A stretch of DNA of 22,590 nt from a virus (IMGVR_UViG_2585427750_000023:1-22590), one strand, 5' to 3'. Positions 2,611 through 7,689 are shown, counted from the first letter of the stretch. Program-made: numbers and translations. The notes: generated from the letters alone by a model not told the origin.

Positions 2611-4848
2611 CTACCATGTCGCATCTATGTAGAACGTTGGAGATGTAGTGGTGGACCCTTCAATCGATATTTGTCCTGTTGAAGCATTAATGGTGGCCAT
2701 TGCCATGCCAAATGAAACGCCATCAGCAGTGAACGGTACAGGGACATTTTTGGTTACTTTTGGTCTGCACCACCTCGGAAGCGTTAGAACAGTATTGCCA
2801 TTCGCAAATGAAGTGGCTGCCAGTTCAATATTAATTGAATTGGCAGTTAAACTTGACGGTGCCTGTACTGTTACGTTTGTTCCAGCCCACCATTGAACAG
2901 CTGCTCTTGGCGTGTAATCAACACGCGACCACCAGTCGATAATGGCAGAGCAGATAATTTCCGCATACAGACGATACCCTAACTGGCTTTGGTGAATGTC
3001 ATCACGCAGAAGTGGGTCGTATTGCGTGTTGAAATACTCTGGATATGGGGCCGGGAGCTGGTGAGTTGTTGTTACACAAATGACGTTATTGCCATATTTC
3101 ATCATCTGGCGTTTACCAGCTTCTCGCAACTCTGCGACACCGTCGTAGTTAGAAGATGGCTGGCCAGCCCCTCCAATAAATGACTGGCTATACCACATCC
3201 ACGGCTCAACCCAAACAGGGATACGACCAAGGCCATTGCAATATAAGACAAACTCATCTATCAATGACGCCATATAATCGCCGTTTTGGTTTGCCTGCCC
3301 TTCGTTAGTTCCGGCAACCATAATAACGATGTAAGCATCACCCGGCCCCTGAGCCTTCAGGAGATCTAACTGTTGCCTCATTGTCTGTCCGGCAACTGCC
3401 TTGTTTACAATGCTATGTGAACGGTGGCCGTTCGCTCCATCCATTAATTGCGGAATGTACGAGCTGAACGCGGAAATGAAATCCTCAGCTGTACTATCAC
3501 CGTGGATAAGGATATTAAGTGGAGGCTTACCGTGCACGCCATTATCAGAGGTGTAGCTGCATAATCCAGTTACACGCGCAGCACCTCCAGATGCCGTGGT
3601 CAGTGCAACAAACCCAACTTCGTATACATCCCCTACATCAGCAGTATCAAAGGGCAAACGTATCCCAACGCCATTCATCGTTATCTGCGCCCAGTTTTTA
3701 CCTTGCAGTGATACGCCAACGGTTGCTTTGCCCGGGGCGTACGACAGTAAACCTCCTGGCAGCGGGAATGGAGTTCCTTCTGCTACTGGACCACCAATTG
3801 GTTTCTGTCTATAAGACCACTGTGTAGCACCTGGTGCCCCATAGAACATCATCCAACCACCAGAGCATCGCAGAACAATCCCAACTTCTGAGGCGGCCTG
3901 AGATTCCATACGAATATGTGCAGAAATATGCTCTCCAATATCTATTGGTGCGAACAGGCCTGTTGTACGGTCAGTAGTTAAGGGGAAGATAGCTGCGCTA
4001 TCTGAGGATATGGTGACTTCACCTTCATAGAAGAACGTGTCACCATTTATGGAATAAACTTTACAATCTGACCATTCCACTCGCTTCATGCGAATAGGGT
4101 TTCGGTTGAGGATGGCCTGCTTAGCCAGATAATCCACTTCTCCACCGGTTGCTTTAAAGTTCAGGTGCGTAAATTCAAACGTACCCTCCCCCTCGTACTG
4201 CAACGATTTAAACAGTGAGTACAGATCACTGTCGAATCTCAGGGTGACATTTTTATCAATGATTACTTTACTGTTCGCAAGGAAAGAAGCGTTAGCAGCT
4301 GTAGACGGTACGGTGTACACCATCTGATTTTTTGAATGATTAGAGAAGTAAACATACCCGTAGGTCGCAACACTATCGCGCCACGCCTGGACTACGTTAG
4401 AATTATCATAACTTGGAATTTTTGTGATCGACTGCAAAACAAGATCTTCCTGTGAGATAGCTCCGTTTACCAGATTAACACCTCCTTGAGATGCAAGATC
4501 TTGCCTGAGTTGGTCAGGGTCATACTTCAGCACATTCGAAAAATAGAACTGCTGCGCACCATACGCATCATAAACAGCCATAGAATGGCCTTGCACGGTT
4601 ACGAATTTGGCAATCTGTCCGTTATATACCGGATATCCAGCAGCGTTAATGATGATTGGTTGCGAAACAGGAACGTGAGAACCATCTTCGTTCTCTACAT
4701 AAACCTGAATCTGGTTTTCAGTATTTACCGGGTCAGTGTCAATTTTACCGATATAAATTTTGCCATTGGCTACGGCTTTAAAAGAACGCGCCATAGTGAA
4801 GAGTTGCGAAGGCATCGATACGATCACATTGGCTGTAATGTCTGTCAT
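2611..4848 (-). CDS. Tailspike protein: P22-family head-binding N-terminal domain fused to a divergent receptor-binding region containing an SGNH/GDSL-hydrolase (esterase) motif set
   Basis: 745 aa; N-terminus [11 protein letters not shown]...[20 protein letters not shown]...[13 protein letters not shown] matches the conserved P22 gp9 head-binding domain; further downstream [11 protein letters not shown] (aa 447-455), GTNE (513-516) and DDIH (616-619) match SGNH blocks I, III and V; RBS GGAG 8 nt upstream of ATG. Confidence 0.85.
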
Positions 4849-4906: not shown

Positions 4907-4929
4907 AAAAAAACCCAGCCGAAGCTGGG
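4907..4929 (-). terminator. Rho-independent terminator between ant and tailspike (minus strand: CCCAGC-UUCG-GCUGGG followed by U7)
   Basis: Perfect 6-bp GC stem 4914..4919 / 4924..4929 with CGAA/UUCG tetraloop, run of 7 A on + strand (U on - strand transcript) at 4907..4913, about 20 nt downstream of the ant stop. Confidence 0.75.
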
Positions 4930-4948
4930 TCGTTGCGTTGGTTATCTG

Positions 4949-5827
4949 TCAGTAGTTATGTACTGAAGGAGGTAATTCTTTATTCTTAAGTCTCATCCAT
5001 GCGGAAAGATTCGTTGGTCCGTCTGGCTCATTAATATCAACATCTCGTGTGTGGTTTATTAAAACGTCTCTCGCCATTCCGATAACATACGAGAATTCAT
5101 GACCGTAGTCGTAGCATCTTCCGGAATAGTTCGATTGAATTTGTTTTAATGCCGGATACAGTTCGCGGAATAATGCCTGTGAACGGTTAGCATAATCCCA
5201 TAGCCATACAAGGCTGTTTGCTTCTTTTGCAGAAAGCTCGTTTGCTTTCTTCTCTTGTTTGCCGATAAACTCGCCTTCAAGCACTACCCTGTGGATGTAC
5301 TCTACGGCCAGCGGGATTTGTTCAATTGAAAGTTCATCAATGCTGTCAATACCAAAACGCTGATGAACCATATTGTATGCATCGTCATAGCGAAGTCCTT
5401 TCTTTCCTACCAGCATGTTTACTGCATCGCGTAGCGGCGTTCTTTCCTCAACAGTGGTTTTCTTGCCTTTCACATACTCGCCATGTTTGCGAATTGAAGG
5501 TAGAACTTCTGCTGTTACCCACTTGCGGAATTTGTGCGGGACCGAACCTTTATTGACAGCATCGCGGCAGCGCAGAACCAATGTATACATACCTGATTCG
5601 CTCACAATGCTTAGATTCTGCTCACCACCAAGGGTGTAACTTAAAGTTACTCCCTTTTCATCGTCATCAAGTGCAGTAAGCGCCTTGCGTGAGTTAGTCA
5701 GGGTTAAAGCATCACAAACATCTTTTGCTACAAACCACGGCTCACCGCATTTGTTGATGACGAGGATTTCACTGTCGCCGAATTTGAAGATGGTGAAATC
5801 GTTTTGTGCCTTTGCTATACTTTTCAT
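4949..5827 (-). CDS. ant: Antirepressor Ant (Bro-N domain N-terminus, P22 Ant-like)
   Basis: Bro-N signature [28 protein letters not shown] at the N-terminus; preferred start ATG at 5827 with AGGA 9 nt upstream; the ORF-track extension to 5893 begins with TTG and is less likely. Confidence 0.8.
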
Positions 5828-5895
5828 GTCAATATTTCCTAATCCGATTTGTTGATACCGAAGCCCTGACTGTTCCCGCAGTTGGGGCTTCAACT
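5828..5895 (+). ncRNA. Candidate sar-like antisense RNA covering the ant ribosome-binding site (hypothesis)
   Basis: Extended -10 TGcTATACT on + strand at 5813..5821 predicts a start near 5828 directly opposite the ant start; an 11-bp hairpin at 5862..5889 is fully paired only on the + strand transcript (two G-U pairs that become mismatches on the mRNA strand); predicted length about 68 nt. Confidence 0.3.
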
Positions 5896-6093
5896 TTCTG
5901 CTCTATCAGTTATATCTTTCCCTTCATATACTTCACCTATATTGCTAATGCTGGCAGAACATCCAAGATGCTTGTATCTTATGATGTCCAACACGCAGTC
6001 ACTACACAGCATCCGACCTGTTTCTTTAGAGTAAATGTATGTTTGATCAGCGTCTGATTCGCTAATGCCGCAGAAACAACATTCTTTACTCAT
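5890..6093 (-). CDS. Hypothetical small zinc-ribbon-like protein (two CxxC pairs) encoded between arc and ant
   Basis: 67-aa [12 protein letters not shown]...RMLCSDCV with Cys pairs about 21 residues apart; SD GAGGGG 8 nt upstream; start ATG overlaps arc stop in an ATGA. Confidence 0.6.
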
Positions 6094-6230
6094 ACCGTTA
6101 TCCCCTCTCTCTTCAGGCTGTCCATCACCCGTTTAATTACTTCTGCACTAAATGAGCGACACTCCTCCTTTGCTTTTTCTTCAAGAATTTTTTCTAGCTT
6201 CTCTGGCATACGCAGTGTTTTAACCTTCAT
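6090..6230 (-). CDS. arc: Arc-like ribbon-helix-helix transcriptional repressor (below the ORF-track size cutoff)
   Basis: Hand-translated 46-aa [49 protein letters not shown], resembling P22 Arc (..FNLRWPREV..NGRSVNSEIYQRVMESFKKEG..); SD GGAGG 5 nt upstream of ATG at 6230. Confidence 0.75.
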   Translation of the reverse strand: MKVKTLRMPEKLEKILEEKAKEECRSFSAEVIKRVMDSLKREGITV

Positions 6231-6242
6231 TGTATCCTCCGT

Positions 6243-6317
6243 TGTATGTGGTACGCATACATAGTATTTAGGTACGCATTGATAGTCAATAGATACCTAC
6301 ATATCCTGTGGTAAAAA
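6243..6317. promoter_or_regulatory. Divergent immI control region: Pant-like promoter (minus strand -35 TTGACT 6284..6289, 17-bp spacer, -10 TACTAT 6261..6266), Pmnt-like extended -10 (TGgTAAAAA 6309..6317, + strand), and two operator-like dyads
   Basis: Dyad 1 TGTATG-N7-CATACA at 6243..6261 over the predicted Pant start; dyad 2 AGGTA-cgc-ATTGA-tag-TCAAT-aga-TACCT at 6270..6298 over the Pant -35; 9-bp direct repeat GGTACGCAT at 6250 and 6271. Confidence 0.55.
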
Positions 6318-6335: not shown

Positions 6336-6584
6336 ATGTCTGATCGTAAGTACAAAAACCCTCAAGTGAATCTGAGGCTTCCTGTAGAGATAAAGGAACG
6401 TCTTATTGAACTGGCTGAGGCTAATTCTCGTTCATTAAATGCTGAGATGGTCGCGGCACTTGAAGCGTGGACCGAAAAAAATAAACACATTCAAGCACTA
6501 GACCTTGCAACTATAGCATCACGATTGATAGATCTTGAACACGATGTTGAGACGCTAAAGACCATGTATGGTAAGGATAAATAA
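6336..6584 (+). CDS. mnt: Mnt-like ribbon-helix-helix repressor
   Basis: 82 aa; N-terminal RHH motif NLRLPVEIKERLIELAEANSRSLNAEMV similar to P22 Mnt/Arc; C-terminal helical tail; AGGA RBS; divergent from arc. Confidence 0.85.
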   Translation: MSDRKYKNPQVNLRLPVEIKERLIELAEANSRSLNAEMVAALEAWTEKNKHIQALDLATIASRLIDLEHDVETLKTMYGKDK

Positions 6585-6586
6585 AT

Positions 6587-6865
6587 ATGACAGATACCAA
6601 AGTGAACTTCAGAGAAACCATCTTCAAGGACTCAAGTGATGCTGTAAATGAGTATGCTGATGGATTTGCTTACTCGTCTTTTGGGGATGTCGGAGCAAGA
6701 TTTGGTTCAATAGCATTTTTTAAGCATGTTTCAGACTGGGTTAATAATGAGGAGATTCAGCCAGTTAGATACCAAATTGCCAACATTCGCATGAGTGAAA
6801 ATCAACTTCTTGAACTGGCTAAGTATATAGTTTCTCAACACGAAGAATCAAAAAAATTAAGCTGA
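6587..6865 (+). CDS. Hypothetical protein, first gene downstream of mnt (start 2 nt after mnt stop)
   Basis: 92-aa ORF with AAGGA upstream inside the mnt 3' end; no recognisable motif. Confidence 0.55.
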   Translation: MTDTKVNFRETIFKDSSDAVNEYADGFAYSSFGDVGARFGSIAFFKHVSDWVNNEEIQPVRYQIANIRMSENQLLELAKYIVSQHEESKKLS

Positions 6866-6872
6866 CAGAGCC

Positions 6873-7433
6873 ATGATTTCTTTCCCTGCCGTAAATGCTG
6901 ATCATGCAGCGGAGAAAAAGAGAACTCTTGGTCGTATGGGGTCGACAGGTGGCATAGGAGAAAAGTCCAATGCTTCGCCTCCAGTTACCAAGAATGATAT
7001 AACCAAAAACAATAATATCGCTTATCTTGGAAAACAATACACTGAGGAGCATGCTATGGGCAGCCCATCAAGAGAAGAGATTGACGCGAAGCTTGGTCAA
7101 AACAAAGCAGAAATTGAGTTAATATCTGCTAACATGCGCGCTGAAATTTCAGCTTTCAGAGAATTCCAATCTAAGCAATTTACAGCTATGAATCAGTCCC
7201 TTAATGAAATTAAGGGACAGATATTCGCTAGCAATGGCGAAGTTGCAGGGCTCAAAGGTCAAATTGATGGCATTAAAACATCCATGACCGCGACCCAATG
7301 GCTCGTTGGTGCGGTTCTCGCTATGCTTGCGGTAATCATAACGCTTCCGCAGATTCAATCTTACTTCAAGGTTTCTGAGCCGACTGCGAAGGAAGCCGCT
7401 AGTGAAACCCATGATACCAAAATAAAGCAGTGA
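6873..7433 (+). CDS. Hypothetical coiled-coil protein with a single C-terminal transmembrane anchor; alternative start at 7056 (125 aa) with SD GAGGAG
   Basis: Heptad-like region EIDAKLGQNKAEIELISANMRAEISAFREFQ..., then hydrophobic helix WLVGAVLAMLAVIITLPQI; the 6873 start has a weak RBS, the internal ATG at 7056 has GAGGAG 6 nt upstream. Confidence 0.5.
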   Translation: MISFPAVNADHAAEKKRTLGRMGSTGGIGEKSNASPPVTKNDITKNNNIAYLGKQYTEEHAMGSPSREEIDAKLGQNKAEIELISANMRAEISAFREFQSKQFTAMNQSLNEIKGQIFASNGEVAGLKGQIDGIKTSMTATQWLVGAVLAMLAVIITLPQIQSYFKVSEPTAKEAASETHDTKIKQ

Positions 7434-7461
7434 TCTTACCAATAAAACCTGGGAGGACAAC

Positions 7462-7689
7462 ATGAAGCAATGGCTCATCATAATTGCTGTTTTTTTGCTC
7501 ATTTACACTGTTTTCCCAACATTAAAAGCACCAATGCAAATAATTTCACTAGCAATAATTGCGATTGGTGCTTTCATTGCTGTAGCCGTACTTGTGTTTA
7601 AGGTTTTAAAGTTTTTAGTTTGGCTATCAAAAGATGATGGATGCAAAGTTCATCAAGAAAAAGAAGGCAAAATAACCAAAGTTGACTAA
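7462..7689 (+). CDS. Hypothetical small membrane protein (two predicted TM helices)
   Basis: 75-aa ORF with strong RBS GGGAGG 6 nt upstream; two hydrophobic segments (about aa 5-22 and 26-52); stop overlaps the convergent gp16 stop. Confidence 0.6.
   Translation: MKQWLIIIAVFLLIYTVFPTLKAPMQIISLAIIAIGAFIAVAVLVFKVLKFLVWLSKDDGCKVHQEKEGKITKVD

Follow-up and report, generated by a model that had tools for sequence, protein, structure and literature searches.

The window, that is, the whole stretch of 22,590 nt of viral DNA that was analysed (IMGVR_UViG_2585427750_000023), carries an immI region with the canonical P22-type order of an Arc-type ribbon-helix-helix (RHH) repressor, an Ant antirepressor, a divergent Mnt-type repressor and sar, P22 being the reference. 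On the minus strand we found an arc-like ribbon-helix-helix repressor gene of 46 aa (6090..6230; Pfam Arc, 37 bits, E 2.9e-9), whose product is called 'Arc family DNA-binding protein' in the RefSeq annotation of the near-identical locus L002, and the antirepressor gene ant (4949..5827; 292 aa; Pfam P22_AR_C, E 3.6e-29, and Bro-N, E 6e-19), followed on its 3' side by an intrinsic terminator-like hairpin detected in a terminator scan (4912..4931, minus strand). A putative Pant promoter for this operon, TTGACT-17-TACTAT (6261..6289, minus strand), was recovered by consensus scan only and occupies the position of P22 Pant. The plus strand carries the full-length sar antisense RNA (5829..5895; Rfam RF00262, 71.6 bits for a gathering score of 43, E 2.2e-14) with the sar terminator hairpin inside it (5860..5891), a Psar-like promoter within the start of ant (5793..5821), also from the consensus scan and placed as P22 Psar, and the divergent mnt-like repressor gene of 82 aa (6336..6584; Pfam Arc/RHH, E 3.1e-10) with a Pmnt-like promoter from the promoter scan (6279..6307).

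The window shares with P22 immI its gene order, the divergent mnt, the types of repressor and antirepressor and the presence of sar and its terminator between arc and ant. In P22, however, arc is followed by sar and ant and by nothing else between them, as the original prediction had stated, and its end runs directly into the sar terminator (arc TAA-AGT-TGA), whereas the window has a 204-nt gene in that position. In addition, the window Arc is shorter (46 aa) and has another C-terminus, and the window Ant has a Bro-N N-terminal domain.

The inserted gene, ORF67 (5890..6093, minus strand; 67 aa, stop included), was present in the ORF list and matched PHROG 7150, and the coordinates and sequence of the predicted insertion, with its ATGA overlap and its own GAGGGG, were confirmed. 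Its ATG (6093..6091) overlaps the arc TGA (6092..6090), so that the ATGA spans 6093..6090, and the Shine-Dalgarno sequence GAGGGG (6102..6107, minus strand) lies within the 3' end of arc, 8 nt 5' of the start codon. At the other end, the G and A of its stop TGA (5892..5890) are inside the sar terminator hairpin and the 3' end of sar covers codon 67. The protein has two cysteine pairs, C5-x-x-C8 (codons 6081..6070) and C30-x-x-C33 (6006..5995), separated by a C8-C30 gap of 21 residues, and these C4 zinc-ribbon signatures, already recognised in the original prediction, proved invariant among its relatives. Predicted structure and invariant columns delimit a structured zinc-ribbon core of residues 1-43 (5965..6093), and pLDDT, dN/dS and polymorphism delimit a variable, predicted disordered tail of residues 44-67 (5893..5964), both on the minus strand. 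Two plus-strand ORFs (5806..6057 and 5882..6034) overlap the gene; the conserved frame is the minus-strand one. The promoter scan of the window gave no promoter-like site between arc and ORF67. Because it has neither a promoter nor a terminator of its own, ORF67 is not a classical moron, and yet, as in morons, its position is filled, empty or refilled among otherwise collinear relatives.

ORF67 is a conserved gene

Only 0.08% of random 67-mers drawn from the six-frame composition of the window contained two CxxC pairs 10-40 residues apart, and among the 178 open stretches of the window that span 50 aa or more, two show the pattern, ORF67 being one of them. The motif alone is thus suggestive, and conservation is decisive: ORF67 is almost certainly a real coding gene, because its frame, position and cysteines are conserved elsewhere. 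The search for homologues in other immI regions bore this out, with frame, position and all four cysteines kept in relatives at 31-38% identity from E. coli, Salmonella, Shigella and Klebsiella (BLASTP 37% over 41 aa, E 4e-11), so that the loss of reading frame or cysteine pattern that would have told against the original prediction was not seen. The relatives include a 63-aa family, shared by E. coli, Shigella, Klebsiella and Salmonella, and another of 68 aa from Salmonella. Every relative examined, in P22-like prophages of E. coli and Salmonella, starts in an ATGA or GTGA overlap with arc, ends in a TGA at the sar terminator and is followed by ant. The invariant residues of the alignment are M1, C5, C6, F7, C8, G9, S22, K23, T25, C30, C33, I37 and E57.

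The nearest phage is CUS-3, with 99.5% DNA identity, and it was the sole match to ORF67 in a tblastn search of 50,697 phage records. In the CUS-3 record (CP000711) the arc-ORF67 stretch (6505-6986) is labelled 'bsq2 boundary sequence', and there is no CDS for the arc homologue or for ORF67. CUS-3 has been described as apparently lacking arc (Villafane et al. 2008, PMC2629481); contrary to this, the stretch encodes a 46-aa Arc homologue (Pfam Arc, E 2.9e-9). The exact ORF67 protein was found on at least 1000 contigs, always as 'hypothetical protein', and its best PHROG, 7150 (E 3e-50), has no assigned function. Among 1.84 billion representatives searched exhaustively with phmmer, P0014 was the one true relative, and a dozen long fish Ig-repeat proteins were rejected as relatives, being compositional or repeat artefacts.

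Among complete E. coli genomes, 373 of 5,426 carry the ORF67 DNA. In 70 of these the identity is at least 99% and ORF67 is intact, and 304 of the 373 (O157:H7, O55:H7, O145) have 97.1% identity and one extra base that breaks the frame after codon 7 (MSKECCFLRH and a stop). No RefSeq PGAP CDS was present at the ORF67 sequence in the sampled rows from both identity classes of these genomes. This frameshift, the missing CDS in RefSeq and CUS-3 and the narrow taxonomic range of ORF67 would all fit an ORF without function, or in decay, that travels as a passenger in a recombination hotspot. We consider such decay very improbable, however, since the frame, start context, stop position and zinc ligands are maintained at 31-38% identity while synonymous sites between the sub-families are saturated, with a dN/dS of 0.34-0.5 in residues 1-45 and of about 1 in the tail. 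Furthermore, polymorphism within clusters is depleted in the core, both in ORF67 (4 of 43 core positions versus 7 of 24 tail positions, p=0.046) and in the related family B (5 of 44 versus 8 of 19, p=0.014), and viral and metagenomic contigs carry the intact allele most often. The left junction of the insertion, described below, had no match in GTDB species representatives, and the element is therefore strain-level prophage content.

Some rarer alleles were also noted. Two C5Y forms, P0029 (13 contigs) and P0037 (7 contigs), have lost the first predicted zinc ligand and retain Y-C-F-C-G, which counts against the reading proposed below. A protein from a Logan assembly (P0001, 112 aa) is a natural in-frame Arc::ORF67 fusion, as would result if the (GA)n tract at the 3' end of arc (...SLKRGGDGMSKECC...) had lost two bases. 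In E. coli O157:H7, a complete mnt-arc-ORF67-ant cassette (L003, 1522-3177; L004, 1525-3180) is found in a lambdoid prophage, flanked by tail genes L and K (C40 peptidase) and with the effector gene nleL next to it; its ORF67 has a +1 frameshift in a T-run (TGTTGTTTTTTGC) and in some strains arc is truncated too.

A variable slot between arc and sar

When the arc-ant junctions of related phages were aligned, two conserved flanks appeared around a variable insert. The left flank is the 3' end of arc, CTGAAGAGAGAGGGGnnnnnGGT(A/G)TGA, which includes the GAGGGG motif and is kept across all slot families, and the right flank is (A/C)(A/G)(G/T)TGAAGCCCC..., the sar terminator. Two independent censuses, one anchored on the sar terminator in IMG/VR (120 loci) and the other on the left junction in metagenomes (41 loci), gave the same repertoire for this slot, with about nine groups of small ORFs behind identical junctions. 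[quoted passage not shown] The other occupants are orf73 of Emek (E; L005, 642-863), weakly FlbD-like (PF06289, E 0.025), a 57-aa protein of phiv205-1 with a GTG start (F; L007, 681-854), an 89-aa protein of EC.P3 with an N-terminal TM helix and a coiled coil (G; L008, 684-953) and a second weakly FlbD-like protein of 80 aa (H; L048; PF06289, E 1.7e-4). In 37 loci the slot is empty, as in P22.

All the occupants start in the arc overlap and stop at the same TGA, supplied by the stem of the sar terminator, and unrelated slot proteins share their last one or two codons because of this common stop. Such shared ends would be expected if the cassettes were exchanged by recombination in their flanks. 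The occurrence of three ZBD-like lineages in one slot suggests, as far as sequence comparison goes, repeated selection for ZBD activity there, and argues that it is of particular use at this stage of the phage programme.

The original prediction had proposed that the small protein could modulate Ant or Arc. An operon-specific partner of this kind, a zinc ribbon that binds Ant or Arc and tunes either antirepressor activity and stability or Arc repression, its likeness to ClpX reflecting a shared interaction fold only, would agree with the strict arc-X-ant synteny seen even in the 31-38% identical relatives, with the predicted coupling of ORF67 translation to arc and with the Arc C-terminus ...SLKREGxxV common to all slot-bearing operons. 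This C-terminus is, however, also simply the left recombination junction. Moreover, ORF67 was found combined with four different Ant N-terminal types, so that a link to one Ant type was rejected, and unrelated proteins or nothing at all occupy the slot beside the same arc and ant types. In the O157:H7-type cassettes ORF67 is frameshifted while ant is intact, and arc too in L003, which indicates that ORF67 is dispensable there. An obligatory partnership is thus disfavoured and we regard a dedicated Ant or Arc partner as unlikely.

The region as a whole corresponds to the 'ant moron' of P22-like phages, described with the epsilon34 genome as a mosaic stretch running from the late-operon genes to the tailspike gene, with ten types in sixteen genomes (Villafane et al. 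2008, PMC2629481). That account concerns the same highly mosaic region, but at the level of the whole region, and is silent on any gene slot between arc and sar. In the window phage, the remainder of the 'ant moron' consists of three small genes after mnt and on its strand (6587-7689), none with an informative family match: a 92-aa gene (6587-6865, plus strand) directly 3' of mnt, a 186-aa gene with a coiled coil and a C-terminal TM segment (6873-7433, plus strand) and a 75-aa gene with two TM-like segments (7462-7689, plus strand). On the other side, the tailspike (2611-4848, minus strand) has the P22 head-binding domain (E 6e-66) and, in residues 450-627, a weak GDSL/SGNH esterase-like region (E 0.0013, below threshold); it differs from the tailspike of CUS-3, which is an endosialidase.

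Many related immI regions, the window not among them, carry a ClpP-like gene of 178 aa directly after mnt and on its strand (L130, 1967-2503, minus strand; L007, 1-169; L008, 1-172), with matches to Pfam CLP_protease and to the PHROG 'head maturation protease' (E 1e-20). It accompanies every type of occupied slot but seldom an empty one, being present in 12 of 31 loci with ZBD-like slot genes, in 6 of 16 with other occupants and in 2 of 29 with an empty slot. A specific link between the ZBD-like slot genes and this gene was rejected on the first two counts, and a second Clp-related gene in these regions remains a curious observation.

ORF67 resembles the zinc-binding domain of ClpX

A profile built from the ORF67 family only and searched against 177,635 distinct PDB sequences had ClpX as its top match (6vfs, residues 5-45), with E 0.0055 for a three-sequence profile and 0.0066 for a seven-sequence one, all four cysteines aligned and nothing else credible. 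By hhalign, the ORF67 family matched residues 1-65 of E. coli ClpX with E 8.5e-5 and slot family C with E 9e-6. Family C passes the Pfam zf-C4_ClpX model with 43 bits (threshold 27) and is 49% identical to E. coli ClpX residues 15-52; PHROG 5259 is its best match (1e-7) and the second match of ORF67 (E 6.7e-5). Below the Pfam threshold, relative B scored 12 bits and family D 18.9 bits (E 0.0015) with the same model; the NCBIfam matches of B and B2 were ClpX models only, at their N-termini (E 0.011 and 0.17), and the UniRef name of the relative P0020 is 'ClpX-type ZB domain-containing protein', an automatic label. Single-sequence searches of ORF67 were uninformative, giving UPF0167 alone in Pfam (E 0.26), no match in NCBIfam and, with zf-C4_ClpX (PF06689, gathering threshold 27 bits), no match even at E<=10.

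The structure prediction agreed with these profiles. We used the AlphaFold model from a seven-sequence alignment, as the single-sequence model was poor (pLDDT 56); it has a pLDDT of about 80 for residues 1-43, which form two beta-hairpins and a helix (31-43), and below 50 for residues 46-67. The order beta-hairpin, beta-hairpin, alpha-helix is that of the ZBD fold, and the two CxxC pairs are spaced as in ClpX-type ZB domains (about 19-22 residues), with C5, C8, C30 and C33, the putative zinc ligands, aligned to those of ClpX. Foldseek superposed the model on the crystal structure of the ClpX ZBD (2ds5_A) over all 43 residues, with a probability of 0.96, a TM score of 0.80 and an rmsd of 1.3 A.

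Small zinc ribbons are easily confused, and ORF67 might be no more than a C4 zinc ribbon of general type that works on nucleic acids or in some other unrelated role, for instance as a regulator of the sar/ant mRNA or a DNA binder, its ClpX match being a treble-clef convergence. The same Foldseek list also contains PHD, RING, ZZ and ribosomal zinc ribbons at similar E-values, and ORF67 on its own fails the Pfam ClpX model. Nevertheless, profiles made from sequence only pick ClpX specifically out of the whole PDB, the superposition on 2ds5 is far better than any other, neighbouring slot families reach or come near the Pfam ClpX threshold, and the non-cysteine signature, C-x-F-C-G-x-S ... I-C-x-x-C-V/I, is the ClpX one, with F7, G9 and I37 invariant in the ORF67 family together with the four cysteines. 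A generic ribbon therefore seems improbable. [quoted passage not shown]

ORF67 is thus a stand-alone ClpX-ZBD-like protein that falls outside the Pfam family by its curated threshold. It shares with the ClpX ZBD the C-x-F-C-G and I-C-x-x-C-V signature and the two beta-hairpins with a C-terminal helix, but it is not a ClpX: it is free-standing, with no AAA+ module (67 aa, ending in the sar terminator), the spacer between its cysteine pairs is 3 residues longer and its score is below the Pfam threshold, a disordered tail takes the place of the ClpX linker and it is encoded in a phage immunity operon. In the hhalign alignment ClpX F16 corresponds to F7 of ORF67 and I46 to I37, neither of which varies in the family; HMMER places the helix with no 3-residue gap, which makes the I46-I37 equivalence uncertain.

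Other phages also have ClpX-ZBD-like sequences in small or medium ORFs, namely phage P88 (L176, 1824-2156), PhiR44_2 and Bacillus phage G (gp258), which are unrelated. In P88 the ORF follows directly on parM-like partition genes and carries a wrong name, 'carboxylate-amine ligase'. Stand-alone proteins of the ZBD type may therefore be more widespread among phages, as a theme not yet characterised.

Expression of ORF67 and a possible decoy of ClpX

Transcription of ORF67 would start at Pant, and its translation would be coupled to that of arc, through the ATGA overlap and a shared Shine-Dalgarno sequence. ORF67 lies upstream of the duplex formed by sar and the mRNA, which extends into its last codon only, and its product should therefore appear whenever Arc does. 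The co-expression with the antirepressor that had been proposed holds insofar as both genes are in one operon; lying upstream of the sar target, however, ORF67 should follow arc rather than ant. Its synthesis would be expected in a burst after infection or induction and also from late read-through transcripts, in which PLATE has a role (PMC12111858).

In ClpX, F16 and I46 belong to a hydrophobic patch of the ZBD to which lambda-O, SspB, RssB and trigger factor bind, and the ZBD is required for the degradation of lambda-O (PMC7804408). [quoted passage not shown] Since a free ZBD inhibits in trans and the equivalents of F16 and I46 (F7 and I37) are invariant, a decoy function is plausible for ORF67. 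The free look-alike would capture degrons or adaptor tails whose usual docking site is the ClpX ZBD, such as those of lambda-O-type initiators, SspB and RssB, or could alternatively pair with the ZBD of ClpX itself. Either route would selectively blunt ZBD-dependent degradation by ClpXP, and as an outcome a phage or host protein would be stabilised or ClpXP-dependent host responses disabled, with the O-type replication initiator, Ant or Arc, sigma-S control and ClpXP-dependent defence triggers as candidates. Argued by analogy, this interference with ClpX is a serious if tentative possibility. Taken as a whole, our best explanation is that of a ClpX-ZBD look-alike, coupled to arc, that acts as a decoy against ClpXP and travels as an exchangeable cassette, and we hold it with only slightly more doubt than confidence.

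A conserved core joined to a fast-evolving disordered tail could also be the design of an adaptor or re-targeting factor, in which the core docks on ClpX, as a heterodimer or elsewhere, and the tail recruits a host or competitor-phage protein for ClpXP. The ClpX ZBD is reportedly a dimerisation module, as Wojtyra et al. are said to have found in 2003, which would suit such docking. A phage-encoded, adaptor-like modulator of ClpCP is known in gp53 of SPO1 (PMC6873191). The tail of ORF67 is short (about 24 aa), however, and not conserved between sub-families, and no target protein is known, so that an adaptor role appears quite unlikely.

Returning to the decoy, a bolder version would make the arc|sar junction a dedicated cassette-exchange site for small host-takeover or counter-defence genes acting in the first minutes of infection, where several independent lineages of ClpX-ZBD mimics were recruited to poison or re-target ClpXP. 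Their purpose would be to block ClpXP-triggered abortive-infection toxin-antitoxin(-chaperone) systems or to shield a phage protein such as an O-type initiator. We find this doubtful. Deletion of clpX abolishes the CmdTAC defence (10.1101/2024.02.24.581848), but the CmdTAC version of the idea is weakened because the degron is C-terminal and the ZBD may not be needed. In PADLOC-DB, ORF67, family B, family C and the neighbouring ClpP-like protein had no match at E<=1. For the anti-defence role that the original prediction had also suggested, ORF67 is a candidate and no more.

Significance and comparison with known systems

P22 immI is a textbook regulatory module, yet both ORF67 and the slot it occupies are undescribed in the searchable literature, where we found no account of a phage-encoded free ClpX ZBD, of ORF67 or of an arc|sar cassette slot. 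What is known already is the fold family, together with the automatic ClpX-type ZB label on P0020. If the decoy proposal is true, it would represent a new phage route to the control of host proteolysis, by mimicry of the protease's own docking domain, and would link antirepressor operons to the control of protein stability; ORF67 would then be a natural, compact and substrate-class-selective inhibitor of ClpXP, usable as a tool. In addition, the slot, with its conserved flanks and about nine groups of small ORFs, is a ready place to seek more host-interaction or counter-defence genes.

Among phage proteins that act on host proteases, T4 PinA and T7 Gp4.5 are inhibitors of Lon. Together with SPO1 gp53 they are comparable to ORF67 as small early phage proteins that re-program or inhibit an ATP-dependent protease of the host, but they have no sequence kinship with it, and to our knowledge none of the three copies a domain of the protease itself and none is aimed at ClpX. 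If the reading of ORF67 as a ClpX-ZBD mimic is true, it would be the first phage inhibitor that copies a domain of its target protease. A parallel for such a mechanism is mycobacterial ClpC2, an isolated N-terminal docking domain of a Clp ATPase that can titrate ligands off the full-length unfoldase (PMC10030653). ClpC2 differs from ORF67 in being a host gene of the ClpC N-domain family that titrates an antibiotic, whereas ORF67 is of the ClpX-ZBD type, is encoded by a phage and would be a decoy by proposal only.
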